A DNA stretch of 64,000 bases, from assembly GCA_038209515.1 (NCBI GenBank), contig JBBQXQ010000004.1, positions 1,078 through 65,077 of the forward strand, in the 5' to 3' direction. Made by a program: the position numbers and the translations under genes. The notes beneath the pieces are model-generated. The model saw only the letters and a list, made by a program, of their open reading frames with translations, was not told the origin of the DNA and made no database searches. Positions 3,571-63,485 of this stretch are shown piece after piece (positions within the stretch are counted from its first letter, which is position 1; each line of letters starts with the position of its first letter). This DNA is from Gemmatimonadales bacterium. Its GTDB lineage: Bacteria > Gemmatimonadota > Gemmatimonadetes > Gemmatimonadales > GWC2-71-9.

Positions 3571-3573
3571 GAA

Positions 3574-3695
3574 GCTATTGGCCATTAGCTATTAGCTACG
3601 CCGATGCGCTAGAGACCCTCCGATGCTCGGGGGGTTTCTTGTTAGAGCCAATAGCCAACAGCTAATAGCTAATAGCTAATAGCTAATAGCTAATA
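3574..3695. repeat. inverted arrays of AT-rich heptamers (GCTATTA x3-4 at 3574-3601; GCTAATA x7, 5 perfect, at 3647-3695) bracketing a terminator hairpin
   Basis: Direct reading. The left array is the reverse complement of the right array. It starts 3 nt after the sigma-factor stop and ends 14 nt before the next ATG. Confidence 0.9.
3615..3643 (+). terminator. rho-independent terminator after the sigma-factor gene
   Basis: 9-bp stem ACCCTCCGA / TCGGGGGGT (one G-U pair), 3-nt loop, then TTCTTGTT. Confidence 0.6.
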
Positions 3696-3709
3696 GCCGA
3701 TCGCCTCAA

Positions 3710-8008: not shown

Positions 8009-9045
8009 CGGTCTTCTCCGCCTTCTCCGTCTTTTCAGCCCTCTCCGCCTTCTCCGCCCTTTCCGCCTGTCGAGGCGACGCACGTACCCCCGTCGTCCTC
8101 TATTCACCCCACGGTCGGGACCAGTTGGCCCTGCTGGAGCACGCGTTCGAGGCCCGACGGCCGGACATCGATGTGCGCTGGCTGGATATGGGCTCGCAGG
8201 AGATCCTCGACCGTTTGCGTTTCGAGCGGGTCAATCCGCAGGCCGATGTCTGGTTCGGCGGGCCGGCCTCGATCTTCGATCGCGGGATCCAGGACTCGCT
8301 GCTGGTGCCCTACCGTCCGGTGTGGGCCGGCAACGTGGAGCGCCGAGGAGCCGGCCCCCGGGATCTCTACTATCCGGTCTACCGGACGCCGGCGGTGATC
8401 GCCTTCAACAGCCGGGCGGTGCCTCGCCGGGACGCGCCCCAGGACTGGGACGACGTGCTGGAGCCCCGCTGGAAAGACAAGGTCATCATCCGGGATCCCA
8501 TGGCTAGCGGAACGATGCGTGCCATCTGGGGGCTCATCCTGCTGCGCAGCCTGCGTCAGACCGGAGACACGGCCCAAGGCATGGCCTGGCTTCGGCGGTT
8601 GGATGGCCAAACCAAGACCTATACCATCAGCCCTGCGCTGTTGTACGAGAAGCTTGCTCGCCAGGAGGGGCTGATAAGCCTCTGGGATCTTCAGGACATC
8701 CTGATCACCCAGGCCAAGGGCATGCCGCTGGGCTACGTCTTTCCCCGGAGCGGCACCGTGGTCATCGACGATGGCATCGGGCTGGTGCGCGGTAGCCGGC
8801 ACCCTGAGGCCGCCCGCGCATTTATCGACTTCGTCGGCAGCGAGGAAGCGCAGCTGCTCGCCGCTCGGCGGGTATTCCGGCTCCCGGCTCGGACCGACCT
8901 TCCGGCCGATTCGGTGCCGTCATGGGTGGCCGACGTCGAGCGTGACATGGTCGTCGCCGACGTGGATTGGGGTCTATTCTCCAAACAGGGGCCGGCGTGG
9001 ATGAGCTACTGGGATCAGCATGTGCGTGGGACAGGGAAGCGGTGA
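8005..9045 (+). CDS. ABC transporter substrate-binding lipoprotein (Fe3+/thiamine-type, FbpA/AfuA-like)
   Basis: The ATG overlaps the upstream stop (ATGA). Lipoprotein signal MTVFSAFSVFSALSAFSALSAC. Body VVLYSPHG...DVWFGGP...VIDDGIGLV. The long 6958 ORF in the track is an out-of-gene upstream extension. Confidence 0.85.
   Translation: MTVFSAFSVFSALSAFSALSACRGDARTPVVLYSPHGRDQLALLEHAFEARRPDIDVRWLDMGSQEILDRLRFERVNPQADVWFGGPASIFDRGIQDSLLVPYRPVWAGNVERRGAGPRDLYYPVYRTPAVIAFNSRAVPRRDAPQDWDDVLEPRWKDKVIIRDPMASGTMRAIWGLILLRSLRQTGDTAQGMAWLRRLDGQTKTYTISPALLYEKLARQEGLISLWDLQDILITQAKGMPLGYVFPRSGTVVIDDGIGLVRGSRHPEAARAFIDFVGSEEAQLLAARRVFRLPARTDLPADSVPSWVADVERDMVVADVDWGLFSKQGPAWMSYWDQHVRGTGKR
8011..8064. repeat. 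6 x 9-bp tandem array (GCCTTCTCC-type) encoding the signal-peptide h-region
   Basis: Units are gtcttctcc, gccttctcc, gtcttttca, gccctctcc, gccttctcc, gccctttcc. This is the reverse complement of the GGCGGAGAA array at 57395-57439. Confidence 0.9.
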
Positions 9046-13002: not shown

Positions 13003-14915
13003 TGAGCGAGGAAGACCGGATCGGCCGGCTCGAGGCGCGGCTGACAGCGCTGGAGGAACAAGTGCGTGAGATGGCAGCCCTAGGGGCGACGCGTGCGTCG
13101 CCCCAAAGGCGTGCATTGCCCGACCCGCATGTGCCTTCCCCATCGACCCCGGCCCCCCGGCCGCGGGCGACGCACGCGTCGCCCCTACCCACGGCTTCCC
13201 GACCGACGATTCTCTCGTCGGAACAATGGATCGGCCAGCGGGTGCTCCTCGCGATCGGTGTCGTCGCCCTCATCCTCGCCGCCGGATACCTGCTGCGTCT
13301 CTCGTTTGACCGCGGCTGGATCTCACCCATCATGCGTTGCATCAGCGGGGCCTGCGCCGGTGTGATCGTCGGTGCGATCGGCTGGCGGCTTCAGCCCCGT
13401 TACCGCACCTACGGCGCAGCATTGATCGGCTGCGGCTCGGGGATCATCTATCTCAGCGTCTGGGCGGCAGCCCGGCTCTACGGGGTGCTTCCTCCCACGA
13501 CCGGCATCCTGGGACTCGCGATGGTGTCGGTCTCCCTCGCGATGATCGCGTATGCCATTGACGTCGAGGCTCTCGGCACCACTGCGGCGCTGGGCGCGTT
13601 CTTCGCGCCGCTGCTCCTGGGCCGCAACTACGCCAACGCGGACCTGCTCCTGATGTACCTCGCCTCGATGGCGGCGGGACTCGGACTGGTCGCGGCGCGG
13701 CGGCGCTGGCGTCTCACCATGTTCGTTGTTGCCGTGAGCTTCTTCGGCGTGGCCTACTCCGGGGCCGCCACCCGCGGCACGCCCTGGGCCGTGCTACTCT
13801 ACGGCGTGCTCGGGGGAACGGCCGGAATCCACGTCGGGCTCCGGGAACGCTGGTGGGAGACCCGGCTGCTCTCGTTCTCGGGCGGCTGGACCTTCGTCGC
13901 CGCTGCAAGCGACCGTCTTCACCACCCCTGGGCGATCCTCCTGGCGGGGCTGGTGCTGGCCGCGCCGGTGTGGTGGTACGCACTTCACTCCAGCCGGATC
14001 CTGCCGCTCCAGCTTCCGACTGGATCAGTCGCGCCGGGTTGGTCGCTGGGCGAGGCGCTGTACTTCTTTCTGACCCCGGTCCTTCTGGGTTGGGCGGTGC
14101 ATGGCCTTGACCCGGGCTGGTTCGACGCGAAACCTGGCGCTGTCGCGCTGCTGGTTGCGCTGCCATACCTCATCGCCGGGTACCAACGACCGCGGCCCGC
14201 TTTTGCCCTCGTTGGCGCGGCTGCGGCCGGCATTGCCGCCTGGCAGCACTGGGATGGCGTTGGGCGGGTCTGGGCCCTCCTCGCCCTGACGGTTCTCTGG
14301 GCAGCGCTCGACCATCTGCTCGCCCGTGAGGATGGACGCTGGTTTGCCCTGGGCACTCTCTGGGCGGCGCTTGATCAGCTCTTTAGCGAGGCGCTCGCGG
14401 GACGCACCGCGGCGGATTCTGCCTTTGTGGGAGCGTGGGCGGTCGCACTGTGGGCGACGGTGGCCGTGACGCTAGGGCTCGCGGCCGGGCTCTGGCGCTG
14501 GGTCGGCGCGGCGAGCGCTGCCCCGCTCATCAGGGGCGGGCTCTGGGCCCTCGGTGGGGCCATGGTGCTCTTCGGGGCGACCGGAGAAATCCAGCGCTAC
14601 TTCGCGTTGAAGACACTTTCCGCTCAGACCGCGAGCCTCGCGTCCGGGCTGGCCGTCAGCGCCTGGTGGCTGGTGTTCGCGGCTGCGCTGGTCATCGGCG
14701 GGTTCCGCCGTGCCCTCAAGCCGGTCCGCCTTGCCGGACTCGGCGTCGCGGGGCTCGCGGTGGTCAAGGTTCTCCTGTTCGATCTTTCCTCGCTCGACGC
14801 TCTCTATCGGGTCGGCTCCGTCTTTATTCTCGGCCTGGTCTTCCTTCTGCTCGCCTACCTGTACCACCGCCAGGGCAGGATGGCAGGCGGGGAGCGCCGG
14901 GAGAGCATCATCTGA
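13002..14915 (+). CDS. DUF2339 domain-containing membrane protein
   Basis: N-terminal coiled segment RIGRLEARLTALEEQVREM, then a Pro-rich linker, then a polytopic membrane body. This layout is typical of DUF2339. Confidence 0.7.
   Translation: MSEEDRIGRLEARLTALEEQVREMAALGATRASPQRRALPDPHVPSPSTPAPRPRATHASPLPTASRPTILSSEQWIGQRVLLAIGVVALILAAGYLLRLSFDRGWISPIMRCISGACAGVIVGAIGWRLQPRYRTYGAALIGCGSGIIYLSVWAAARLYGVLPPTTGILGLAMVSVSLAMIAYAIDVEALGTTAALGAFFAPLLLGRNYANADLLLMYLASMAAGLGLVAARRRWRLTMFVVAVSFFGVAYSGAATRGTPWAVLLYGVLGGTAGIHVGLRERWWETRLLSFSGGWTFVAAASDRLHHPWAILLAGLVLAAPVWWYALHSSRILPLQLPTGSVAPGWSLGEALYFFLTPVLLGWAVHGLDPGWFDAKPGAVALLVALPYLIAGYQRPRPAFALVGAAAAGIAAWQHWDGVGRVWALLALTVLWAALDHLLAREDGRWFALGTLWAALDQLFSEALAGRTAADSAFVGAWAVALWATVAVTLGLAAGLWRWVGAASAAPLIRGGLWALGGAMVLFGATGEIQRYFALKTLSAQTASLASGLAVSAWWLVFAAALVIGGFRRALKPVRLAGLGVAGLAVVKVLLFDLSSLDALYRVGSVFILGLVFLLLAYLYHRQGRMAGGERRESII
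13083..13184. repeat. two copies of a GC palindrome inside the DUF2339 linker coding region
   Basis: GGGGCGACGCGTGCGTCGCCCC (13083-13104, perfect 22-bp palindrome) and GGGCGACGCACGCGTCGCCC (13165-13184). Confidence 0.85.
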
Positions 14916-23084: not shown

Positions 23085-24599
23085 TCAGCCGGGATTTGTG
23101 TTTCCAGCCTCGACCACCCGAGAGTTCCTGGGCGGATCGATCTTCCCCTTCAGGGAATCCGTGATATACCGTGTGAGCAGGTCCAGGGCTCTGGGGGCGG
23201 CCTCGCGCCGGCCACAGGCCGACATCGCCTCCGGCACCTTGTACCCATCCCCCCCGTCACAGGCCGTGTAGGCCCCAAACGCCACCACAACCGTGTCGTG
23301 CGGTCCCAGGACCGCTCCCTGGCTTCGCCGGATCTCGCCTACGATCCGGCTGCCGGAGGGGCGGTTGGGGTCGAAGGTGAATGACACACCGGACACCTGA
23401 AGAAACCCGCCACTGCCGAGAACCCCGCGGGAGACCCCGTGCTCCAGAATCTGTCTCACCCCGGCACCGCTCAGCGGGAAGGTGACGACCCGGGTCTGAT
23501 CGGCAAAGGGAAAGACCGCCTCGAGCTGGTGGTTGGTGACCGGGCCGGGCTTGATGGCGTTGTCCAGGCGCAGTGTGCCGGCGTTGAGCAGGGCGACATC
23601 GGCCCCGGTTCCAGCCCGCATAGCGTCCGTCACTAGATCGCCGAGCAATGACTCTCGCCGCCGCGACCCGCTGCTCGATGCCTCGATGGTCGCGCTGGTG
23701 AGGCCCACTTCGCGCACCGGTCCCAGTTGCCGGTCGAGGCTGTCCCTCCATGCCTCGATCACCCGCGCGGTCGCCGTATCGGACGGCAGTGCCTGATCGA
23801 TGCGCACCAGCCCTGTCGCCTGCCGCCATTTGCTCTTTCCGCCCCAGACGGTCACGAACTGGGCGCTTCTGGCATTCGCATCCGCCTTGACGACGTGCCG
23901 ATTCGAGGTGACGGAGTCCTGCGCCTCGTGCTCATGACCTCCCAGGATCAGGTCGAGTCGCGGCTCCCGTCCCAGCAGCTCGCGATCCGCCGGCATCGTC
24001 TGGTGAGTCACGCCGACGATCAGATCGGCGCCTTCGTCGGTGAGCGTTTGGATGACCCGGTGTGCGGCCGTGTCCGGGTTGGAGCAGCGGACGTAGGCGG
24101 GATAGGGGCCCTGGAGGGTGAGGCCGAACATCCCGACCTTATGACCGGAGACGTGCAGGGTGTCCCACGGGAAGACCTTCGGCAGCGGCTCTCCACTGGA
24201 CAGGGTGCAGTTGCTCGAGATCCACTTGAACTTCGACTCGCCGATCCGGGCAAGGAGGGTATCGAGCGGAAAGTCGAACTCGTGGTTGCCGAAGGTGGCG
24301 TAGTCGAGCTTGGCCGCGTTCAGCGCCTCTACCATCTGCCGGCCCCGATAGAACTTGCTGGCCAGGCTCGGGCTCAGCACGTCGCCGGCCAGCACGAAGA
24401 GGATCGGCCCCTGGTCGGCCAGGCGGTTCCGTACCGTGGCAACCCGGGCCAGGCCACCCTGTCCGTCGGGCATGGTGTCGGCCACATAGACGTCGTTGAT
24501 CACGAGGAAGCGGACCGGTTTGAGCGGGATCGGTGGCGGGGCGTTGCCCATGCACCCGGTCGCGCTGATCAGGATCGCAAGGATGACGCGACGGCTCAC
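23085..24599 (-). CDS. bifunctional metallophosphatase/5'-nucleotidase lipoprotein (UshA-like)
   Basis: Motifs VINDVY, AGDVLS, GNHEFD, GGHEHE. Lipobox VSRRVILAILISATGC. GTG 24599 overlaps the upstream stop (GTGA). Confidence 0.88.
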   Translation of the reverse strand: MSRRVILAILISATGCMGNAPPPIPLKPVRFLVINDVYVADTMPDGQGGLARVATVRNRLADQGPILFVLAGDVLSPSLASKFYRGRQMVEALNAAKLDYATFGNHEFDFPLDTLLARIGESKFKWISSNCTLSSGEPLPKVFPWDTLHVSGHKVGMFGLTLQGPYPAYVRCSNPDTAAHRVIQTLTDEGADLIVGVTHQTMPADRELLGREPRLDLILGGHEHEAQDSVTSNRHVVKADANARSAQFVTVWGGKSKWRQATGLVRIDQALPSDTATARVIEAWRDSLDRQLGPVREVGLTSATIEASSSGSRRRESLLGDLVTDAMRAGTGADVALLNAGTLRLDNAIKPGPVTNHQLEAVFPFADQTRVVTFPLSGAGVRQILEHGVSRGVLGSGGFLQVSGVSFTFDPNRPSGSRIVGEIRRSQGAVLGPHDTVVVAFGAYTACDGGDGYKVPEAMSACGRREAAPRALDLLTRYITDSLKGKIDPPRNSRVVEAGNTNPG

Positions 24600-25213
24600 A
24601 GATATTCCTCTCTCTCCCGAAGACTTCGCACCAGGTCGGCACTCATCAGTCGCAGCTCGGTCAGCATATCCCGTTGGGGCCAGTCCGGACGGCTGGCGAG
24701 AATTTCCAGCATCGAGCGATACCACCAGATCGTCTGTTCCGAGCTGGCGCGCGACACTGTGCGTAGGTACTCGACACCCAGTCGCCTGAGTGCCGTGACG
24801 GTAGAGCCGCAGGCGTGGATCTCGTCGGCCACACAGATGTCGAGCGCCCGGGGTTCCGCGATGCCGAGCTGGGTCAGGTACTCCTGCTTCTGGGCCTGCC
24901 AGGCGCGTTCGTTGCCGCGCCGGTCGAACTTGGGCTCCAGCGCATCCTTGGCCACCGCGAGCGCTACCGGCCCGAACTTGTCGCCGATTTTCCGCTCGAG
25001 CACCGGGTGCTTGTCCGGCGCGGATTCCTCCAGGATGTGGTGCAGGATGCCGGCGACGATTGTGATCTGATCACACCCGTATCGCGCGAGGATGACCGCC
25101 ACGTTGGACGGGTGCGCCAGATAGTCCATCCTGGCACCGGCAGGCGCGACCGCGCCGTGATATTTGGCGGCAAAGGCGAACGCGTGATTGATCCGGTCGG
25201 AATAGCCGTGCAT
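24596..25213 (-). CDS. HD-domain protein, Rel/SpoT/MESH1-hydrolase-like, with HD replaced by HH
   Basis: AFAFAAKYHG...DYLAHPSNVAVIL...DQITIVAGILHHILEES...CVADEI aligns by eye to the (p)ppGpp-hydrolase HD fold. ATG 25213 is chosen; the 323-aa ORF extension runs through a repeat and into queE. Confidence 0.6.
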   Translation of the reverse strand: MHGYSDRINHAFAFAAKYHGAVAPAGARMDYLAHPSNVAVILARYGCDQITIVAGILHHILEESAPDKHPVLERKIGDKFGPVALAVAKDALEPKFDRRGNERAWQAQKQEYLTQLGIAEPRALDICVADEIHACGSTVTALRRLGVEYLRTVSRASSEQTIWWYRSMLEILASRPDWPQRDMLTELRLMSADLVRSLREREEYL

Positions 25214-25218
25214 TCTCA

Positions 25219-25355
25219 GCGGGGAAGCGGGGAAGCGGGGAAGCGGGGAAGGAACGCTAAGCCTGGAGACAGACCGGATAAAGGGGTAGCAAGCGTGGCG
25301 GTCACGTACCCACCGACGCATCCTTCCCCGCTTCCCCGCTTCCTGGCTTCCCCGC
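25219..25355. repeat. inverted pair of (GCGGGGAA)4 arrays separated by ~70 bp, filling the queE-HD intergenic region
   Basis: 25219-25250 is 4 perfect 8-mers. 25324-25355 is ttccccgc, ttccccgc, ttcctggc, ttccccgc. The right end abuts the queE stop codon and the left end is 6 nt from the HD start codon. Confidence 0.95.
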
Positions 25356-25991
25356 TTACGGAATCCCGAGAAGCTTATGCGTCTGCAGGCTGAGCCGCCA
25401 GCGCGGGTGGGCCAGGCAGTATTGAAGGGCGGCCGAGGTGTTGGCCTCGCGGTCGGGTCCATCCATCGGCTGGAGGAAGTAGTGGCGGAACCCGAGCCGC
25501 TCGAACTGGTCCGGTGCCGTCCCGGCCTGCGGGAAAACCAGCTTGATCTCATCGCCACGGGTGACAACCAGCTCGGCCCCGGCCTTGGGGCTCACGCAGA
25601 GCCAATCGATGCCATTCGGGGCCGGCAGGGTCCCGTTGGTCTCGACCGCGATCTCGAAGCCTTCGCCGTGCAGGGCCTGGACCAGCTCCGAGTCCAACTG
25701 GAGGAGCGGCTCACCGCCGGTACAGACCACGAAGCGACGGCCAGACTCGGCCGGCGGCCAAGCGGCGGCTACCGCGGCCGCGAGCTCCCCGGCCGAGGCG
25801 AACCGTCCCCCACCGGGACCATCCGTGCCGACAAAATCGGTATCACAAAACTGGCAGGTGGCCTGGTGGCGGTCCTGCTCTCGCCCGCTCCACAGGTTGC
25901 AGCCGGCAAAGCGGCAGAACACCGCGGCCCGCCCAGTGTTGGCCCCTTCGCCCTGGAGGGTGTAGAAGATCTCTTTGACGGAATACGTCAT
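25356..25991 (-). CDS. queE: 7-carboxy-7-deazaguanine synthase (radical SAM)
   Basis: EIFYTLQGEGANTGRAAVFCRFAGCNLWSG...C-x-FCDTDF. Confidence 0.92.
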   Translation of the reverse strand: MTYSVKEIFYTLQGEGANTGRAAVFCRFAGCNLWSGREQDRHQATCQFCDTDFVGTDGPGGGRFASAGELAAAVAAAWPPAESGRRFVVCTGGEPLLQLDSELVQALHGEGFEIAVETNGTLPAPNGIDWLCVSPKAGAELVVTRGDEIKLVFPQAGTAPDQFERLGFRHYFLQPMDGPDREANTSAALQYCLAHPRWRLSLQTHKLLGIP

Positions 25992-26003
25992 GCTCGCTCC
26001 TGA

Positions 26004-26075
26004 ATGTCATCCTGAGCGAAGCGAAGGATCTCTCGACCGACCTCGGAGAGATTCTTCGCTACGCTCAGAATGCCA
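26004..26075. repeat. REP-like hairpin element (GTCATCCTGAGCGAAGCGAAGGATCTCTC ... GAGAGATTCTTCGCTACGCTCAGAATG)
   Basis: ~28-bp imperfect inverted repeat between queC and queE. Related copies at 35378, 36912, 46345, 31275. Confidence 0.85.
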
Positions 26076-26086
26076 ACTCATCGCGC

Positions 26087-26791
26087 TCACCGCTTACCGC
26101 TTACCTGATACATCGCTGGATCCTCCAGCCCCGCTTCCCGGAACCCTTTAAGTCTGAGCACACACGCGTCGCACCGGCCGCATGCGGCACCATCGGAACT
26201 CGGATCGTAGCAGGTAAGGGTGAGGCCGTAGTCCACGTCCAACGCCAGGCCGCGCTCGATGATCTCACGCTTGGAGAGCGAGATCAGGGGGGTGTGGATC
26301 GTCATCCTGCGCCCCTCTTCGACCCCCGCTCGTGTGGCCAGGTTGGCCAGCTCCTGAAAGGCGCGCATGTATTCCGGCCGGCAGTCGGGGTACCCGCTGT
26401 AATCCATGGCGTTCGCGCCCATGAAAATGTCGGATGCGCCAAGCACCTCGGCCCAACCCAGCGCAAACGCCAGGAAGATCGTGTTGCGGGCCGGCACGTA
26501 TGTCGGGGGAATTCGCTGGCCGATCTCTTCCAGCGGGGTGTCCTTCGGCACGTCCAGCTCCCCAGTGAGGGCCGAACCGCCGAAGGCGCGAAGATCGATG
26601 TCGAGGACGACGTGCTTTCGGATACCCAGACGCTCGGCGACCCGTCGCGAAGCCTCCAGCTCGGCCGCGTGCCGCTGGCCGTACCGGAAGGTAAGGGCAT
26701 GCACATCGAATCCCCGATCGAGCGCGATGGCCGCGGTGGTGGCTGAGTCCATCCCGCCGCTCAGGAGCACCACCGCCGTGGGTTTTGTCAT
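26087..26791 (-). CDS. queC: 7-cyano-7-deazaguanine synthase
   Basis: [15 protein letters not shown], plus the C-terminal Zn cluster C-x2-C-x-C-x2-C region ([10 protein letters not shown]). Confidence 0.95.
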
Positions 26792-27744
26792 CGCGGAAAG
26801 TTATCCCGCCCGTCCTTTTGCAGCACATGCCGGAGCGCGCTCTCCGGATCGGGGTGACCGAAGCGATACCCTGCCTGGAGCAGCCTGGCCGGGACGGCAC
26901 GGATACTCGACAGGATGGTGCCCCGAGCCATGTCGCCGAGCACGAGCCGGAGCGCCGACTCGGGCACGACAAGGAGTGCGGGGCGTGACAGCACCCGCGC
27001 GAGGATACGGGTGAAGTCGCGGTTGGTAAGCGGCTCCGGCGCCGTGACGTTGACCGGACCCTCGAGACCGTCGTCAACCAGCGCCTGATGAACGGCCTGC
27101 ACCGCATCGTCGATCGAGATCCAGCTCATCCACTGTCTGCCGCTGCCAAGACGCGCACCCAGACCCAAACGGAATGGCAGGAGCATCTTTCTGAGCGCGC
27201 CACCCGCAGGGCTGAGTACTACGCCGAACCTTGGGTGCACCACCCGAATGCCTTCGACCCGGGCCGGCTCCGCCGCTTTCTCCCATTCCCGGGTCACCGA
27301 TACGAGGAAGTCCCGATCGGCATCGCCGGCCGGGCTCTCTTCGGTGAGCACCTCGTCGCCGCGGTCTCCATAGATCCCGACCGCCGAGGCTGAGATCATC
27401 ACCTGGGGCGGACGCTGGAGACCGGCCAAGGTCTCACTCAGCAGGCGGGTACTCGCCACCCTGCTGGAACGGATGCGTCCCTTCCGCTCGGCGGTCCACC
27501 GGGCACCGACGTTCTCTCCCGAGAGGTGAACCACAGCATCCGCGCCCTCGAGCGCGGCCGGGTCCAGCGACCGCGCCGCGGGGTCCCAGGCAATCTCGCC
27601 CCGGCCGGCTGCCCGGCGTACCAGGCGGGCCACCCGGTGACCCTGGGTCGTGAGCCGCTGCACCAGCGCCGATCCGATGAGACCGCCGGCGCCGCTGACC
27701 ACGATGTGCAGCGGGGATTGTGATCGGAGGGACGAATACATCAT
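26788..27744 (-). CDS. TIGR01777-type NAD-dependent epimerase/dehydratase family protein (SDR39U1-like, DUF1731 C-terminus)
   Basis: Rossmann motif [13 protein letters not shown]. Length and C-terminal pattern fit. ATGA overlap with queC. Confidence 0.75.
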
Positions 27745-27773
27745 GAGTCCCGGACCTTTACATTGCGAGGGCT

Positions 27774-28292
27774 ATGCCGATCAGATTCGCCAGCTGGTTC
27801 GCGTTTGTCCTGGCCGTGAAGCCATTGGCCTGTGCGGCGCGGCAGCAGGAAACGCCGCGGCAGGACGACTGTATTGTCGCCCATGTGGCCGACGGCGACT
27901 CGTTTCGTTGCGCCGATGGCCGGCAGGTGCGACTCATCGGCATCGACAGTCCCGAGTCCCAGCAGCGGCCATACGGTGAGTGGGCTCGGAACGCGCTGCA
28001 GCAGATATTGCGGCCCGCTGCCGCCGTCCGACTGGAATCGGACGTCGTCCCGACGGATCGCTACGGCCGGCGGCTGGCCTACGTCTGGGTGGGTTCGACC
28101 CTGGTGAACGAGGCGATGGTGCGGGACGGCTGGGCCGTGCTCTACACCGTCCCACCCAACGTCAAGTATGTGGAGCGGCTCACCCGGGCGCAAAACGAGG
28201 CCCGCGCACGCGGCGCGGGCCTCTGGGGGCAACGGGGCTTCGACTGCCGGCCGAGCGACTTCCGGCGCAACCGGTGTGTCAGTTCACCGTGA
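27774..28292 (+). CDS. thermonuclease (staphylococcal nuclease, SNase-like) family protein, exported
   Basis: VADGDSFRC..GRQVRLIGIDSPE...DRYGRRLAYVWV...VNEAMVRDGWA. Confidence 0.85.
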   Translation: MPIRFASWFAFVLAVKPLACAARQQETPRQDDCIVAHVADGDSFRCADGRQVRLIGIDSPESQQRPYGEWARNALQQILRPAAAVRLESDVVPTDRYGRRLAYVWVGSTLVNEAMVRDGWAVLYTVPPNVKYVERLTRAQNEARARGAGLWGQRGFDCRPSDFRRNRCVSSP

Positions 28293-36877: not shown

Positions 36878-36945
36878 GCCGGACGGGCGGACAGGCGGAC
36901 AGTTGTTAAATTTTGTCATTCTGAGTGCAGCGAAGAATCCCTCAA
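36878..36945. repeat. (GCCGGACG GGCGGACA GGCGGACA) 8-mer array followed by a half REP-like element (GTCATTCTGAGTGCAGCGAAGAATCCCTC)
   Basis: Direct reading. Same 8-mer unit as 63049-63072. Lies in the divergent gltA / M28 peptidase intergenic region. Confidence 0.85.
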
Positions 36946-36947
36946 GA

Positions 36948-38525
36948 ATGAAGGCACCCTTGCTCATTCGACACTTCGCCGGCCTGCTGGTGCTCATTGC
37001 AGCCAATCCCGCTGCCGCCCAGTCCAGCGTCGATACTGCGGGTGCCGGGGCCCTGATCGATCAGGCCATGAATCACTCCGAGGTGATGCAGAATCTCCAG
37101 CACCTGAGCGATGTCATCGGGCCTCGTCTCTCCGGCTCACCGGCGATGCGACGCGCCAACGAGTGGACCGCGGAGCGGTTCAGATCCTACGGCCTTACGG
37201 CCGCCCTGGAGCCGTACACCTTCGGCGTCACCTGGGAGCGAGGGTCCACCACCGTCCGGCTCCTGGCCCCCTTTTCCCGCGAGATCACCGCCCACAGCTG
37301 GGCCTGGACCGACGGCACGGGAGGCAAGACCCTGAGCGGTCCCGTCGTCCTCACCGATCTCTCGACTCCGGAGAGCCTGGCGGTCTACCATACCAAGGTG
37401 AAAGGCGCCTGGGTGCTTCCCAGGGCTCCGTTCCCCACCTGGAATCCCGATGGTCCGCCGATGACCGCGGCCGACTCCGCCGACGTCCAGGCACAGATCA
37501 AGTTCCGGGGGAGCCCGTTCGCCGACACCTCTGCCGCGGCGGTGGCGGCTCGTCGCCAGTACCAGATCGATCTGTCCTATATCCTCCAGGCCGCCGGCGC
37601 GCTCGGCACCCTCATCGATGGCGCCAAGGACCATGGGCTCATGACGATGAGCGGCTCGCCGACTCGGGTGTCGCCGTTGCCCAGTGTGGTGATCTCGCAT
37701 GAGGACTACACCCTCCTTACCCGGCTTATCGGGGCGGGAGGGACACCCCGCCTCGTCGCCAGGATCGAAAACCGCATCGGCAAGACCCCGGTCCAGCAGT
37801 GGAACACGGTGGCCGAGCTCAAGGGGACCGAGCGGCCCGGCCAGGTCGTGATCCTCGGTGCCCACCTGGACAGTTGGGATCTCGGCACCGGTACCACCGA
37901 CAATGGCACCGGCTCGATGGTGGTGCTCGAGGCGGCCCGGGCCCTGGCGCAGTCCGGGCTCAAGCCGAAGCGCTCGATCCGCTTCATTCTGTTCAGTGGG
38001 GAGGAGCAGGGGTTGCTCGGCTCACGCGCCTACGCCGAGGCTCATGCCGGTAGCGCCGACAGCATCCAGGCCGTGCTGGTGCTGGACAATGGCACCGGGG
38101 CCATCACGGGCCAGGCACTACAGGGGCGGAAGGATTTGGAGGGTCTCTGGGAGCAGCTCCTGGAGCCGGTGGCGTCGCTCGGCGCCGACAGCGTGCGGGA
38201 CGCCAACAAGAGCGGCACCGACCATCTCTCGTTCCTACCCTATGGCGTGCCTGGGTTCAACTTCGATCAGATCTCCAGGGGATACAATCACACCCATCAC
38301 TCGCAGACCGATACGTACGACAAGGCTGTTGCGGGCGATCTTAAGCAGGCGGCGGCGGTCATGGCGGTCACGGCATATGAGCTGGCGAACCTGCCCGAGC
38401 TGTTGCCGCGTGGGACGAAGAGTCCGGTGATGCCGGTGCCGACGAAGCCGTCGCCCGGATTGGCGGTACGGCGGTACGGCGGTACGGCGGCGAGGCGGTA
38501 CGGCGGTGAGGCGGTACGGCGGTAG
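36948..38525 (+). CDS. M28 family metallopeptidase, exported
   Basis: ATG 36948 with a signal peptide. Motifs VILGAHLDSWDLGTGTTDNGTG, FSGEEQGLLGS, DHLSF. The last 21 codons and the stop are encoded by an 8-mer array. Confidence 0.85.
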   Translation: MKAPLLIRHFAGLLVLIAANPAAAQSSVDTAGAGALIDQAMNHSEVMQNLQHLSDVIGPRLSGSPAMRRANEWTAERFRSYGLTAALEPYTFGVTWERGSTTVRLLAPFSREITAHSWAWTDGTGGKTLSGPVVLTDLSTPESLAVYHTKVKGAWVLPRAPFPTWNPDGPPMTAADSADVQAQIKFRGSPFADTSAAAVAARRQYQIDLSYILQAAGALGTLIDGAKDHGLMTMSGSPTRVSPLPSVVISHEDYTLLTRLIGAGGTPRLVARIENRIGKTPVQQWNTVAELKGTERPGQVVILGAHLDSWDLGTGTTDNGTGSMVVLEAARALAQSGLKPKRSIRFILFSGEEQGLLGSRAYAEAHAGSADSIQAVLVLDNGTGAITGQALQGRKDLEGLWEQLLEPVASLGADSVRDANKSGTDHLSFLPYGVPGFNFDQISRGYNHTHHSQTDTYDKAVAGDLKQAAAVMAVTAYELANLPELLPRGTKSPVMPVPTKPSPGLAVRRYGGTAARRYGGEAVRR

Positions 38526-38565
38526 GAGTCATTGCGAGGGGGCAAAGCCCCCGAAGCAATCCAGC
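38462..38565. repeat. 8 x 8-bp tandem array (GGCGGTAC-type, 38462-38525) followed by a CATTGCGAGGGGGC...GCCCCCGAAGCAATC hairpin
   Basis: Units are ggcggtac x3, ggcggcga, ggcggtac, ggcggtga, ggcggtac, ggcggtag. The TAG of the last unit is the peptidase stop codon. Confidence 0.92.
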
Positions 38566-47109: not shown

Positions 47110-47456
47110 GGCGTCGACGCCCGCCCTTCGGGCGGGCATGCATCATTCATTCATTTGCGCGTGGACGCGCACCCGGCCCTTACGGGCCGGGCTCTTCGTT
47201 TGGCGCGGTCCGTCCGGACCGCGGACGCTCCGTGCGCCCCAACGTCCCGATGTCCAAGGCCTAACTCAAGATTCGGATTTGCTCGCGTGGACAGCGGAGT
47301 CATGGATCAGACACATTTGACGTCGAGCCTTCTTCGCGCTGGGAGCATCCGCGGTCCGGCGGACCGCGCCATTCCGTAGCCCGGCCCGTAAGGGCCGGGT
47401 GCGCGTCGACGCGCAAAAGAGAATCACGGCCCGCCGCCAGGCGGGCGTTTTTGGCG
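47110..47456. repeat. ~350-bp compound palindrome: four GC hairpins (A-B-C-D), ~125-bp lower-GC core, then D'-C'-B'-A'
   Basis: A GCCCGCCcttcgGGCGGGC (47119); B GCGCGTggACGCGC (47157); C CCCGGCCCttacGGGCCGGG (47172); D CGCGGTCCGtcCGGACCGCG (47204). They are mirrored at 47350 (D'), 47379-47414 (C'B', 1 mismatch to the reverse complement of BC) and 47429 (A', followed by TTTTT). Confidence 0.9.
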
Positions 47457-47457
47457 T

Positions 47458-52122
<4,665 letters not shown>

Positions 52123-54174: not shown

Positions 54175-55878
54175 ATGACTGAAACCCTGACCGGCTCTCA
54201 AATCCTCTGCCGCGCGCTGCTGGAGCAGGGAGTCGACGTCCTGTTCGGGTATCCCGGCGGCGCGATCATGCCGTTCTATCACGCCTTGCCCGAGTATCCC
54301 GGCCTGCGCCACGTGCTGGTGCGGCACGAGCAGGCCGCCGCCCACGCAGCCGACGGGTACGCCAGGGCGAGCGGACGCGCCGGTGTGTGTGTCGCGACCT
54401 CGGGTCCCGGGGCGACGAACCTGGTCACTGGCCTTGCCACCGCCCATATGGACAACGCGCCCGTGGTTGCGATTACCGGACAAGTCGCTCGGGCCATGAT
54501 GGGCCGGGACGCGTTCCAGGAGACCGACATCATCGGGATTACCCAGCCGATCACCAAGCACAACCGGCTGGTGGAGGACGTCGAGGAGCTGGAGGACGCC
54601 GTGGCAGAGGCCTTCTACGTCGCACAGGAAGGCCGGCCGGGCCCGGTGCTGATCGATATTCCGAAGGACGTGCAGAATCAGAAGGCGGAGTGGAAAGGCG
54701 GTCAGGCGGTCAGGCGGTCAGGCGGTCACTTGGAATCGACCGACCGACCGCCCGTCCGCCCGCCGGGCCTCGAAGACGCCACTCGTCTGATCGCCGAGGC
54801 CCAGCGTCCCCTCATTATGGCGGGTCACGGTGTCCTGCTCTCGAATGCCTACGCCGAGCTTCGTGCTCTGGCCGAGCGCACCGGGATTCCGGTGATCACC
54901 ACGCTGCTTGGGATCAGCGGATTCCCGGAGTCGCATCCACTCCACCTGGGTATGCCGGGGATGCACGGCGAGGTCCACGTCAATCGCGCCATCCAGCAGG
55001 CCGATCTCATCATCGGACTCGGCCTCCGATTCGACGACCGGGTGACTGGCAACCTCGCGGGCTTCGCGCGCGGGGCCAAGGTCATTCACGTGGACCTCGA
55101 TCCGTCCGAAATCGGCAAGAATGTGCCAGTCGCAATCGGGATCGTGGGCGACGTGCGGGCGGTGTTATGCTCGCTGCTGGATATGGTAGCGCCGCGACAT
55201 TGCGACGCGTGGCGGGAGGAAATCGCCGGGTTCGTCCGGCCTCGGCAGGAGGCCTTTCGGGGAGGACTGACTCCAGAGACTATCCTCGATGCCATCGACG
55301 GGGCTACCTCGGGCCGCTGCTCCATCGTCTCGGATGTGGGCCAGCATCAGATGTGGGTCGCCAAGCTCTTTCGTTATCAGCGTCCCAACAGCCACATCAC
55401 CTCCGGCGGTCTCGGCACGATGGGGTTCGCCGTACCGGCCGCGATGGGCGTGGCCCTGGCACGGCCGGATGAACCGGTGTGGGCGATCTCGGGCGACGGC
55501 GGTTTTCAGATGAACATGCAGGAGATGGCGACGATGGTGCAGGAAGGGATCCCGGTGAAGATGGCGATCTTCAACAACGGATACCTTGGCATGGTGCGGC
55601 AGTGGCAGCAGTTCTTCCATGGTAAGCGCTACTCGGCGACCCCGATCTGGAGTCCCGACTATGTGCGGCTGGCTGAGGCCTATGGCATTGCCGGCTGGCG
55701 GGTGGAGTCGGCGGATCAGGCCCAATCCGTGGTCCGCGAGGCGACGGCCCAACCCGGTCCGGCCCTGGTGGAGTTCGTCATCGAGCAGGAGGCGAACGTC
55801 TACCCCATGATTCCGCCGGGTGGCTCTCTCTCGGAGCCGATCGAGGGCGAACCTGTGCCGCCACTGGTGCCCGCATGA
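54175..55878 (+). CDS. ilvB: acetolactate synthase large subunit (biosynthetic type)
   Basis: ThDP enzyme pattern (GYPGGAIMPFYHAL, GPGATNLVTG, GLGTMGFAVPAAMG, GDGGFQMN). Confidence 0.95.
   Translation: MTETLTGSQILCRALLEQGVDVLFGYPGGAIMPFYHALPEYPGLRHVLVRHEQAAAHAADGYARASGRAGVCVATSGPGATNLVTGLATAHMDNAPVVAITGQVARAMMGRDAFQETDIIGITQPITKHNRLVEDVEELEDAVAEAFYVAQEGRPGPVLIDIPKDVQNQKAEWKGGQAVRRSGGHLESTDRPPVRPPGLEDATRLIAEAQRPLIMAGHGVLLSNAYAELRALAERTGIPVITTLLGISGFPESHPLHLGMPGMHGEVHVNRAIQQADLIIGLGLRFDDRVTGNLAGFARGAKVIHVDLDPSEIGKNVPVAIGIVGDVRAVLCSLLDMVAPRHCDAWREEIAGFVRPRQEAFRGGLTPETILDAIDGATSGRCSIVSDVGQHQMWVAKLFRYQRPNSHITSGGLGTMGFAVPAAMGVALARPDEPVWAISGDGGFQMNMQEMATMVQEGIPVKMAIFNNGYLGMVRQWQQFFHGKRYSATPIWSPDYVRLAEAYGIAGWRVESADQAQSVVREATAQPGPALVEFVIEQEANVYPMIPPGGSLSEPIEGEPVPPLVPA
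54684..54764. repeat. inverted 8-mer arrays inside ilvB: (GGCGGTCA)4 at 54697-54728, 9-nt spacer, degenerate CGACCGCC-type array at 54738-54764
   Basis: Direct reading. Translated in frame as GGQAVRRSGGHLESTDRPPVRPPG, in the linker between the Pyr domain and the central domain. Confidence 0.9.
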
Positions 55879-56381: not shown

Positions 56382-57481
56382 CCACGCCAGTGCGGGTGTA
56401 CTACGATGCCGACGCCGACCAGAGCCGCCTGGACGGCCGCACCTTTGCCATCATCGGGTATGGCAGCCAGGGACACGCCCACGCCTTGAACCTCCGGGCA
56501 AGCGGAGCAGACGTCATCGTGGGACTGCGGCGCGGCGGAGGATCATGGGAACGTGCCCGTGCCGCGGGTCTCGACGTCCAGACGGTGGCCGAAGCAGCGG
56601 AGGCCGCCGACGTGATCATGATGCTGGTGCCGGACCAGGACGCCCGCGCCATCTATGAAGGCGGCGTCGTGCAGGGCCTTCGACCGGGCAAGACGCTGAT
56701 GTTCGCTCACGGGTTCAATGTGCACTATGGCGAGATCGTGCCACCCGATGGGGTCGATGTCTCGATGGTCGCGCCCAAGTCTCCCGGTCATCTGGTGCGG
56801 AGTGAGTTCGAAGCCGGCCGGGGGGTGCCTGGTCTGGTCGCCGTGCATCAGGACGCAAGCGGGGAAGCTTTGGCCAACGCACTGGCATACGCCGCCGGGA
56901 TCGGTTGCACCCGGGCCGGGGTCATCGAGACCTCCTTTCGGGAGGAAACAGAGACCGACCTGTTCGGCGAGCAAGCGGTGCTCTGCGGCGGCGTCACCGC
57001 ACTGGTCAAGGCCGGTTTCGAGACCCTCACCGCTGCGGGCTACCGGCCGGAGATGGCCTACTTCGAATGTCTCCACGAGCTCAAGCTCATCGTGGACCTC
57101 ATGTACCGGGGTGGCCTCCAGTTCATGCGCTACTCGATCAGCGATACGGCGGAGTACGGCGATTACACCCGCGGCCCCCGGGTGATTACAGAGGAAACGC
57201 GGGCGGAGATGCGCCGGATTCTCGATGCCATCCAGGACGGCTCCTTCGCCCAGGAGTGGCTGGCAGAGAACCGAGCCGGGCGGGCCAACTTCGACCGGCT
57301 TCGGAAGGCCGACCACGACCACGAGATCGAGCGGGTCGGGGCCGAGCTCCGGGCCATGATGCCGTGGTCCGAGGAAGGGAAGCGGGGTGGTAAGACGGAG
57401 AGGACGGAGAAGGCGGAGAAGCCGGAGAAGGCGGTGAAGTCGAAACGGCCTCACCGTCCCGCGCACCCGCTGCCTCGCTGA
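56378..57481 (+). CDS. ilvC: ketol-acid reductoisomerase (class I) with Lys/Glu-rich C-terminal tail
   Basis: [16 protein letters not shown] and the KARI C-domain. The tail [31 protein letters not shown] lies beyond the usual end. Confidence 0.95.
57395..57439. repeat. 5 x 9-bp tandem array (GCGGAGAAG-type) encoding [15 protein letters not shown]
   Basis: Units are acggagagg, acggagaag, gcggagaag, ccggagaag, gcggtgaag. Confidence 0.9.
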
Positions 57482-63040: not shown

Positions 63041-63123
63041 ACGGGGCGGGCGGACAGGCGGACAGGCGGACGGGCGAGTACTCCTCATCCCGTTCCTTCA
63101 GTACTGTCCGCCTGTCCGCCCGC
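63041..63123. repeat. inverted (GGCGGACA)n arrays around an AGTACT...AGTACT core, between the glnK stop and the ilvD start
   Basis: 63049-63072 is ggcggaca, ggcggaca, ggcggacg. 63105-63120 is tgtccgcc x2. Both arms also contain AGTACT. Confidence 0.9.
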
Positions 63124-63485
63124 TACGCCGGCATGGCCACCGCTGGGGTTACGGCGGATTCGTTCCGCTCGCCGGTCCGGATCCGGTAAACCTGGGCCAC
63201 GTCGAGGACGAACACCTTGCCGTCGCCGACTTCGCCGGTGCGAGCGCCGCCGAGAATCGCATTGATGGTTACCTGTACGAACGGCTCGGAAACGCCGATC
63301 TCGAGGCGGACCTTCTCCTGCAGTTCGACCTTGACGGTGGTGCCGCGGTAGGTCTCGACGTGCTCGGTCTCGCCACCGTGCCCGAGCACCCGGGAGACAG
63401 TGAGGCCGCGAACTTCGGTGCGGTACAGCGCCTCCAGCACCTCGTTGAGACGGTCCGGGCGGATGATTGCTACGATGAGCTTCAT
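63123..63485 (-). CDS. glnK: P-II nitrogen regulatory protein (GlnK-type, linked to amtB)
   Basis: MKLIVAIIRPDRLNEVLEAL...GHGGE..ETYRG (T-loop Tyr)...DGKVFV. ATG 63485. Confidence 0.9.
   Translation of the reverse strand: MKLIVAIIRPDRLNEVLEALYRTEVRGLTVSRVLGHGGETEHVETYRGTTVKVELQEKVRLEIGVSEPFVQVTINAILGGARTGEVGDGKVFVLDVAQVYRIRTGERNESAVTPAVAMPA

Follow-up and report, generated by a model that had tools for sequence, protein, structure and literature searches.

Repetitive extragenic palindromic (REP) elements have been linked to mRNA stability. In Xanthomonas and Nostoc, simple sequence repeats (SSRs) with the heptamer units GGGAATC and GGGGAYT, respectively, are intergenic, lie near the 3′ end of the upstream open reading frame (ORF) and have an unknown function (Rehm et al. 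2015, PMC4692102). Each Xanthomonas genome carries 70-75 convergent array pairs able to form stem-loops; about four units are preferred, length and sequence vary between close species at conserved junctions, and a quadruplex has been proposed for the repeats (PMC4692102). Hairpins that couple the translation of adjacent genes are described for genes VII/IX of phage f1, for MS2 coat-lysis and for E. coli rpmI-rplT, with RNA unfolding as the model (PMC12548453), and template switching (quasipalindrome correction) is known to homogenise and expand the arms of inverted repeats (PMC13100816). Here, we analysed a contig stretch of 64,000 nt from a Gemmatimonadales bacterium (the 64-kb window, to which all coordinates refer) and in particular a hairpin with arms of tandem 8-mers, which takes up the whole gap between queE and a downstream HD-domain gene on the minus strand. 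Our sequence comparisons suggest that this element is a local copy of a habit found at several Gemmatimonadales gene junctions, and not a switch special to the operon. In the following, W denotes the allele of the window, while L numbers denote loci of relatives or from metagenomes.

Direct reading of the plus strand gives four GCGGGGAA units without a mismatch at 25219-25250 and the units TTCCCCGC, TTCCCCGC, TTCCTGGC and TTCCCCGC, one of them degenerate, at 25324-25355. Tandem Repeats Finder reports a period of 8 for both arrays (4.2 copies at 100% and 4.4 copies at 85%), so that the four perfect units facing four units with one degenerate, as listed in the first-pass annotation of this DNA, are confirmed. 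With an inverted-repeat finder, the arms extend over 25218-25253 and 25321-25356; they are 36 nt each, 94% complementary and separated by 67 nt, which bears out the annotated stem of ~35 bp around a loop of ~67 nt including the flanking GGA/TCC. The queE-HD spacer of 142 nt is made up of 35 + 67 + 35 + 5 nt. The annotation was thus right that the element spans the whole spacer; the distance to the HD start codon is 5 nt and not 6 nt. The parts of the junction are, in the order of the transcript:

25356 to 25991, minus strand: queE, 7-carboxy-7-deazaguanine synthase of the Cx14CxxC type (TIGR04508, 4.5e-110; Radical_SAM)
25321 to 25356, minus strand: 5′ arm in the mRNA, in sense GCGGGGAA, GCCAGGAA (degenerate), GCGGGGAA, GCGGGGAA, then GGA
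25254 to 25320, minus strand: loop of 67 nt, unique, with small sub-hairpins of its own
25218 to 25253, minus strand: 3′ arm in the mRNA, in sense TCC and four perfect TTCCCCGC units, spanning about -6 to -40 of the HD gene
25214 to 25218, minus strand: unpaired linker TGAGA, 5 nt from the stem to the HD ATG
24596 to 25213, minus strand: HD_4-domain gene, 205 aa, RelA/SpoT-like hydrolase domain (Pfam PF13328)

The 5′ arm begins with the final base of the minus-strand TAA that terminates queE (25356-25358), and the HD gene starts with the ATG at 25211-25213. Both arms are direct 8-mer arrays that lack self-complementarity, as is evident from direct reading. Folded as RNA, the minus (coding) strand reaches -110.2 kcal/mol (z = -8.58) and the plus strand -109.1 kcal/mol (z = -7.67); 0 of 200 shuffles equalled the fold energy of either strand. 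The folding of the minus-strand transcript that had been suggested along with the annotation therefore yielded an energy far below that of shuffled controls. Hairpins with periodic arms number three in the window, compared to none in 40 order-3 Markov simulations of it. The hairpin allele is no assembly artefact because independent assemblies carry the same allele (L202 as well as L203, L204, L205 and L208, the last four identical and from four samples). In type A alleles, the motif CTGAGA(TC) is conserved at the linker before the HD gene. That a very stable palindrome with mirror-image arms of 8-base repeats exists at this junction is hence confirmed.

The palindrome is one of a class. Whole-spacer palindromes with repeat arms were found at four Gemmatimonadales junctions and at many metagenome loci. 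Apart from the queE-HD element, the following features of the window belong to this picture:

3571 to 3707, plus strand: element after rpoD, filling its spacer, with (AGCTATT)n, a central terminator-like hairpin and (AGCTAAT)n
63046 to 63123, minus strand: element between two minus-strand genes, with (GGCGGACA)n / (CTGTCCGC)n arms of 20 nt, 100% complementary
26084 to 26105, minus strand: (GTAAGCG)x3 array over the queC stop codon
26087 to 26791, minus strand: queC, immediately upstream of queE (PF06508, 1e-74; TIGR00364)

The loop of the post-rpoD element holds the terminator-like hairpin at 3616-3634 together with a T run. On contigs of relatives, 15 of 17 rpoD 3′ ends have an array abutting the stop, a central terminator and a complementary array; the exceptions are L233, which has the first array only (the contig ends inside it), and L216, which has no array. 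In L218-L226 and L232, the far array clearly extends to the stop of the convergent gene for aconitase. At this junction the 7-8-mer unit differs by species (L217-L233): GCTATCC, TCGTGAG, GGCCATG and GGCGGGCA occur besides a related set of CTACAGG, GCTACGG and TCTACGG. The first base of the element at 63046-63123 is likewise the final one of the stop codon upstream (63123-63125); between its other end and the following ATG (63029) there are 16 nt. In the queC-queE spacer of many relatives, (GTRAGCG)n or (GTGAAGG)n form inverted pairs; the window keeps the 5′ array only, and its (GTAAGCG)x3 array is, judged by these sequences, what remains, as a 5′ arm, of a second element with repeat arms.

An exact scan of metagenomes for (GCGGGGAA)3 returned at least 120 loci. 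Among the matches listed, none is located at queE-HD, the GC content ranges from 0.39 to 0.73, and about 27 loci possess a complementary array at a distance of up to 250 nt, the loops being unrelated. Of the non-duplicate array pairs listed, 25 have the G-rich array in front and 1 has the C-rich array in front. A nearby gene ends at most 4 nt from the hairpin end in 11 of 18 cases listed, the distance from the hairpin to the next start is 17-178 nt, and of the single arrays listed with an abutting stop, 15 are G-rich and 1 is C-rich in the sense of the gene. No strand-specific signal other than this orientation rule was found, and the rule points to a constraint at the level of the transcript. 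Rho, for example, might be loaded by an untranslated stretch that is rich in C and poor in G and directly follows the stop. The window itself holds a single GCGGGGAA locus; its other junctions use other units.

A scan with the HD protein, restricted to one genome per species, gave 80 loci, nearly all from metagenome-assembled genomes of Gemmatimonadales. As queE lies directly upstream of the HD gene in 79 of them, these served as comparison set, in which the spacers fall into the following types:

At least 90 nt, a single long hairpin of -54 to -103 kcal/mol with an arm period of 8 or 9 nt: 33 genomes
30-89 nt: 12 genomes, several of which resemble deletion remnants (L004, L023, L026, L027)
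At most 29 nt, commonly ~10 nt, without structure: 30 genomes
Type unclear: 3 genomes
Long spacer with a fold of only -40 kcal/mol: L071

In the long hairpins, the stem starts directly at the queE stop (0 nt) in 26 of 33 and within 2 nt of it in 31 of 33, and it ends 4-9 nt upstream of the HD ATG in 27 of 33. A neighbour-joining tree of QueE and HD places the hairpin throughout the clade of the window and in part of a second clade. The comparison with related genomes that the first-pass annotation had recommended hence cuts both ways: the hairpin recurs at the same junction in 33 of 79 relatives, and more than a third have the operon without any structure, which was, if combined with equal expression, the pattern named in advance as speaking against the proposed role. 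The element is dispensable in many relatives.

The genomes of the queE-HD comparison use different repeat units:

GCGGGGCA: most genomes
GCGGGGAA: window, L007, L014, L030, L033
GGACGGGAA, a 9-mer: L001, L013, L018, L022
GGCGGGCA: L063
NNGGAACG: L201 (allele C)

In each of these classes the partner arm is the complement, i.e. the repeat differs by genome and both arms change together. The 3′ arm of a genome matches its own 5′ arm at 21.8 of 28 positions, compared to 19.6 of 28 for arms of other genomes; in a permutation test, whose statistic ignores kinship, 0 of 10,000 permutations reached the observed value. The co-varying arms are also conserved relative to the loop. Between W and L202, 69 of 70 arm positions but 59 of 68 loop positions are identical, at an identity of the HD gene of 82% overall and 56% at third positions. 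Between W and L007, the values are 63 of 70 for the arms and 37 of 72 for the loop, at 81% overall identity of the HD gene. Among alleles of the GCGGGGAA class, divergence of the loop thus exceeds that of the arms about 4-9-fold. Even the degenerate unit GCCAGGAA is itself conserved (W, L202, L203 and L213).

Alleles of the spacer move independently of their flanks. L001 is the closest relative at the species level, with 97% protein identity and near-identical flanking DNA, yet its spacer is not homologous to W: it consists of 9-mer units with a different 34-nt tail and is common to the more distant L013 and L026. The spacers of L203 (window-like allele, 139 nt) and L207 (9-mer allele, 120 nt) cannot be aligned, whereas 899 of 900 bases are identical from the HD start onward and so are the 128 bases preceding the queE stop, the stop codon itself excepted. 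One identical HD protein (P0122) occurs on contigs with four allele types, with HD genes that are 97.6-99.7% identical at the DNA level and complete spacers of 125, 146 and 171 nt. L202 has the allele of the window though it is only 82% identical both in the HD gene and in the last 300 nt of queE. Among alleles of conspecific strains, the fold energy ranges from -45 to -103 kcal/mol. From these comparisons we infer that the alleles are old and are exchanged by recombination via conserved gene ends. Third-position conservation (L001-L080) is highest in the last 8 codons of queE (0.84, mean 0.68; 25356-25380) and in the first 8 codons of HD (0.82, mean 0.67; 25188-25213), a modest excess in both cases; CAT AAG CTT CTC is nearly invariant there despite the high genomic GC content. 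These conserved ends may constitute a translation-initiation or a recombination anchor. The fold additionally predicts an outer helix between the 3′ end of queE and the 5′ end of HD, flanks that are too invariant for covariation.

But, why should a gap of 142 nt be filled with a palindrome? We favour an account that combines a resident copy of a palindrome class with an effect on coupling or processing, and we give this combination about an even chance of being correct; membership in the class is held with much higher confidence than the functional steps. The plan of the class is as follows: a G-rich 7-9-mer array runs from the upstream stop and is followed by a unique centre and by a complementary array that closes the hairpin. 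Arrays would arise by replication slippage, intrastrand template switching would copy one arm onto the other, and the palindrome would expand to occupy all non-coding space up to the flanking coding sequence. Homologous recombination via the conserved ends of the genes would pass whole alleles from strain to strain. Selection would keep the arms paired, as the stem would loop out the insertion in the mRNA. Such maintenance by selection is suggested by the 4-9 times slower divergence of the arms compared to the loop and by the complementary arms that the alleles keep; it is seen only as a difference in rate. In the queC-queE-HD-nucleotidase transcript, the stem of ~35 bp would loop out 137 of the 142 spacer bases, and, at its base, only a few bases would separate the stop of queE from the start of HD, much as in the 10-nt spacers of relatives. 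The stem would also bury positions -6 to -40 of the HD gene. Translation of HD would then depend on ribosomes that finish queE and open the base of the stem (coupling by RNA unfolding), as is to be expected because the HD gene lacks a Shine-Dalgarno motif. The long perfect duplex would be a likely site for RNase III or a barrier to exonucleases. Taken together, the predicted stem may influence HD expression and mRNA processing.

Several observations weigh against the combined account. Relatives with the same operon manage without structure in 30 of 79 cases, and the tree leaves both the short spacer and the hairpin as possible ancestral state. In type B alleles, the region around the HD start is largely free of the array stem and thus unmasked. 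The degenerate unit GCCAGGAA was left unrepaired between genomes with 18% divergence of the flanking genes, and its persistence therefore argues against frequent ongoing correction from arm to arm. Across alleles, the arms average ~17% mismatches, so selection on pairing is not strict. A sense-strand RNA signature was not found at queE-HD, neither in wobble mismatches (54 of the G.U type versus 39 of the A.C type, p = 0.15) nor in fold energies (the sense fold is more stable than the antisense fold in 18 of 41 alleles, p = 0.42). Moreover, the links between alleles and flanks stem from metagenome contigs, which can be strain chimeras, and the effects on HD translation and mRNA processing are predictions from sequence and fold.

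In the first-pass annotation, the stem was thought to gate translation of the downstream genes or to serve as a processing or stability site. Read strictly, this would mean a hairpin selected at this very operon, either as a gate for the HD and nucleotidase genes or as an operon-specific processing or stability site, which we consider unlikely. Physically, both a role in processing or stability and a masked HD start are plausible. The 3′ arm lies over -6 to -40 of HD, the stem starts at the queE stop, its end is found 4-9 nt before the ATG in 27 of the 33 relatives with long hairpins, and the arms are more conserved than the loop; with a stem from the queE stop to -6 of HD, the window has the geometry of a coupling hairpin. 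The annotated lack of a Shine-Dalgarno motif outside the stem also proved correct. However, an SD-like 4-mer is missing at -20 to -4 of HD in 77 of 78 genomes, hairpin or not, and the missing Shine-Dalgarno sequence is therefore not special to the hairpin. In the type B (9-mer) alleles L001, L013, L206 and L207, inverted-repeat scans place the end of the array stem ~32-39 nt upstream of the ATG. Their stem does not include the HD start region and has no coupling geometry, hence masking of the HD start is not conserved; the conserved feature is the stem beginning at the queE stop codon. The 30 of 79 relatives without structure and the occurrence of the architecture at unrelated junctions, including one between convergent genes, also speak against a gate of this kind. 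Alleles of conspecific strains that range from -45 to -103 kcal/mol are hard to square with a tuned gate, and no signature was found on the sense strand. On the basis of these comparisons, the regulatory idea of the annotation finds only partial support, and the hairpin appears to be neither a regulator that evolved for the queuosine genes nor an operon-specific gate.

A role of the whole class at the RNA level that has nothing to do with coupling appears improbable as well. The duplex would be cut by RNase III or block exonucleases and would thereby separate cistrons or destroy read-through transcripts. Stems of 20-40 bp are a classic target of RNase III, and the rpoD arms, which lie on either side of a true terminator, extend to both convergent stop codons, so that only read-through transcripts would hold both arms. 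The higher conservation of the arms relative to the loop would fit such a role, and so would the transcript-level constraint implied by the orientation rule. The queE-HD junction itself fits poorly: without a central terminator, every transcript of the operon would be cut upstream of an HD gene for which no promoter was detected, and no wobble bias of the mismatches was found on the sense strand.

The element might also be a selfish mobile palindrome, similar to REPINs, REPs or MITEs (miniature inverted-repeat transposable elements), which inserted after the stop and whose arms are conserved by transposase recognition. We regard this as distinctly unlikely. GCGGGGAA does occur at 120 or more unrelated metagenome loci, presence or absence and allele replacement are seen within near-identical flanks, the ends often read (G)TAG|GCGGGG ... 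CCCCGC|CTA, which recalls the REP GTAG head and TA target sites, and true REP-like families are present in these genomes. However, when the loops of all elements of the window were compared by BLAST with all 200 fetched loci, only self-hits were obtained, with an unrelated REP-like hairpin family as exception. The loops are thus unique, and a loop that serves as common mobile core is ruled out by the lack of a match at 200 other loci. Target-site duplications are not consistent: the flanks here are TA and GA, and the pattern differs from locus to locus, which also disposes of a MITE with a TA target. This lack of a duplication and an internal sequence that is not common to other copies speak against a MITE in general. 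The arms are direct-repeat arrays and not self-palindromic REPs of 20-40 nt with imperfect pairing, so that a defining feature of REP/REPIN is missing, too. The REP-type GTAG head at the hairpin foot reads GTAA here and GTAG, GTGA or ATAG in relatives, and is confounded with the stop codon. Only one GCGGGGAA locus exists in 64 kb, the allele is vertically stable at the orthologous site over 18% flank divergence, and the units after rpoD shift gradually by species (CTACAGG, GCTACGG, TCTACGG), which fits evolution in place.

Two further ideas fare worse. In the first, the stem is a bridge on which the ribosome is handed from the stop at its 5′ foot to the start at its 3′ foot, a shunt-like termination-reinitiation. 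Plant pararetroviruses have a ribosome shunt with this geometry, a process that to our knowledge is not known in bacteria. A shunt, as part of a reading that also includes an undescribed class, selection on pairing, cassette-like swapping and an HD gene without Shine-Dalgarno sequence coupled across 142 nt, appears very unlikely to us. In the second, the four G-runs per arm would fold into a G-quadruplex or i-motif in DNA or RNA with the hairpin as competitor, which is highly improbable: the plus-strand arm is a textbook motif (G4-N4 x4), the modal count of runs of at least three G in the sense G-arm is four (25 of 41 alleles) and echoes the four-unit preference in Xanthomonas (PMC4692102), and 15 of the matches listed, against 1, have the G-rich array behind the stop in the sense strand, but the conserved degenerate unit leaves three G4 runs in the mRNA-sense array, units of sister elements have no G-runs (AGCTATT, GTAAGCG, TCGTGAG, CTACAGG), allele C (L201) has one run of at least three G in its sense arm, and the complementary arm is predicted to out-compete a quadruplex energetically.

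Known signals were also searched for at the spacer. Rfam gave no family at gathering score in the window, and under permissive settings only generic microRNA-precursor hairpin models far under threshold. With no Rfam match at gathering score, there is no sign of a known cis-regulatory RNA (e.g. a preQ1 riboswitch) or small RNA. In a scan of 24500-27900, no sigma-70-like promoter and a single terminator-like site were found, the latter on the plus strand at 25143-25156 and thus outside the element; none was found within 25190-25380. An intrinsic (Rho-independent) terminator is rejected as there is no U-run and the stem is followed by GAGAAUGCAC (GAGAAUG). By inspection, there are no core sites of an integron attC and no spacer array of a CRISPR. 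A contingency (phase-variable) SSR locus is discarded, too: the copy number is stable, with W and L202 keeping 4+4 units across 18% flank divergence, and the locus is therefore not driven by slippage. REP/REPIN, MITE, terminator, riboswitch and contingency locus each fail at least one tested defining feature.

The identities assigned to queE and the HD gene in the first-pass annotation hold on the basis of their profile matches. The HD start is backed by a length of 205 aa in nearly all of the 120 homologues listed, whose source names are Gemmatimonadales. Next after the HD gene follows a 5′-nucleotidase gene, which overlaps it by 4 nt in close relatives. Some database HD proteins are annotated with 223-241 aa instead of 205 aa, and one ORF of the window that shares the frame of HD (24596-25567) remains open through the entire spacer, i.e. 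there is no in-frame stop. The longer database entries are probably mis-called N-terminal extensions across the repeat arm.

Further repeats were noted in the window. The repeat over the queC stop encodes the last QueC residues, VSGKR*. The queC-queE junction (25992-26086; L001-L080) is hypervariable and features short spacers of ~10-30 nt, (GTRAGCG)n inverted pairs, (GGCGGTAC)3 or REP-like hairpins. A REP-like hairpin family (GTCATYCTGAGCG.AGCGAAGRATC, or cattgcgag...gaagcaatc) is present at 26010-26070, 36913-36945 and 38528-38565, and the GTCATYCTGAGCG family was also seen in L001, L014, L027, L112, L142 and others, at many unrelated loci. At 13081-13187, there is a REPIN-like doublet of the palindrome (C/G)TAGGGGCGACGCGTGCGTCGCCCC, with two inverted copies 61 nt apart; this family fills the queC-queE spacer in L203, L209, L210, L212 and L016, where it begins at the TAG stop. 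The unit GGCGGACA is also found at 36880-36902 in a divergent intergenic region. An (GGCGGTAC)x8 array at 38462-38524 forms the last ~20 codons (63 nt) of a 554-aa ORF and adjoins its stop (38523-38525); the same unit occurs at the queC-queE junction of L017. Inside the gene of the acetolactate synthase large subunit (ilvB), four AGGCGGTC units are followed by three CGACCGCC units at 54696-54762, in the linker after the first domain. An in-frame insertion is ruled out for this pair, as the linker length matches that of the plant acetolactate synthase (AHAS). Two 9-nt tandem arrays (8013-8068 and 57392-57439) are apparently translated: by hand translation, one starts 2 nt past a candidate ATG (MTVFSAFSVFSALSAFSALSA...), and the other encodes a K/E-rich C-terminal tail. 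Nested inverted repeats at 47151-47420 have arms of 40-43 nt (95% complementary, 184 nt apart) and an inner 44-nt pair; their arms are non-periodic, and they lie just 3′ of a 1554-aa minus-strand ORF (47458-52122).

The interest of the queE-HD element lies in its apparent generality, its orientation rule and its allele pattern, and not in the regulatory idea. Should complete genomes bear out the pattern, Gemmatimonadales would have a systematic way of building intergenic DNA, in which gaps are filled from stop to stop or start by repeat-armed hairpins whose unit varies by locus and strain while architecture and orientation are fixed. This would provide a natural experiment on how palindromes originate and persist in compact genomes, on the extent to which looped-out insertions are tolerated or exploited by translational coupling, and on why G-rich arrays follow stops in the mRNA sense, extending the puzzle of Xanthomonas and Nostoc to another phylum. 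In practical terms, the elements probably create false N-terminal extensions in gene calls and can be used as strain-resolving markers in metagenomes.

How does the element relate to the known systems? A prior description of the architecture in Gemmatimonadota was not found in the open-access literature, which is weak evidence given that scope. The coupling hairpins resemble it in that the stem includes the downstream initiation region, is entered by upstream ribosomes and precedes a gene with weak signals of its own (PMC12548453). They differ in being short, locus-specific and partly inside the upstream ORF, whereas the stem described here consists of 35 bp made up of repeats, is confined to the spacer and is absent or shifted in many relatives. 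Template-switching systems share a route at the DNA level to complementary and growing arms that does not require RNA selection (PMC13100816); those cases are short inverted repeats in yeast promoters and mutation spectra, in contrast to whole-spacer elements with tandem-repeat arms, and correction is not frequent here because the mismatch persists. Like REP, BIME and REPIN elements of E. coli and Pseudomonas (PMC2817692, PMC8049555), the element is a GC-rich inverted pair in intergenic or intercistronic position, forms a hairpin of ~100 nt after a stop and is tolerated in operons. REPs, however, are imperfect palindromes of one family with hundreds of copies mobilised by REP-associated tyrosine transposases (RAYTs), whereas direct-repeat arms and unique loops are found here. 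The SSR pairs of Xanthomonas and Nostoc are the closest precedent: they share a tandem unit of 7-9 nt in which a G-run precedes a short linker, here GCGGGGAA in four copies on each strand, the convergent orientation of the arrays with the G-rich one first on both strands, and the intergenic position, which here begins at the upstream stop. Unlike in Xanthomonas, where one unit is used genome-wide at ~28 nt from the ORF end, the unit is specific to junction and allele, several units have no G-run, and the distance to the stop is 0-2 nt. Finally, and in distinction from the repeats of both genera, the Gemmatimonadales element fills its whole spacer, and its conspecific alleles are unalignable and appear to be exchanged like cassettes.

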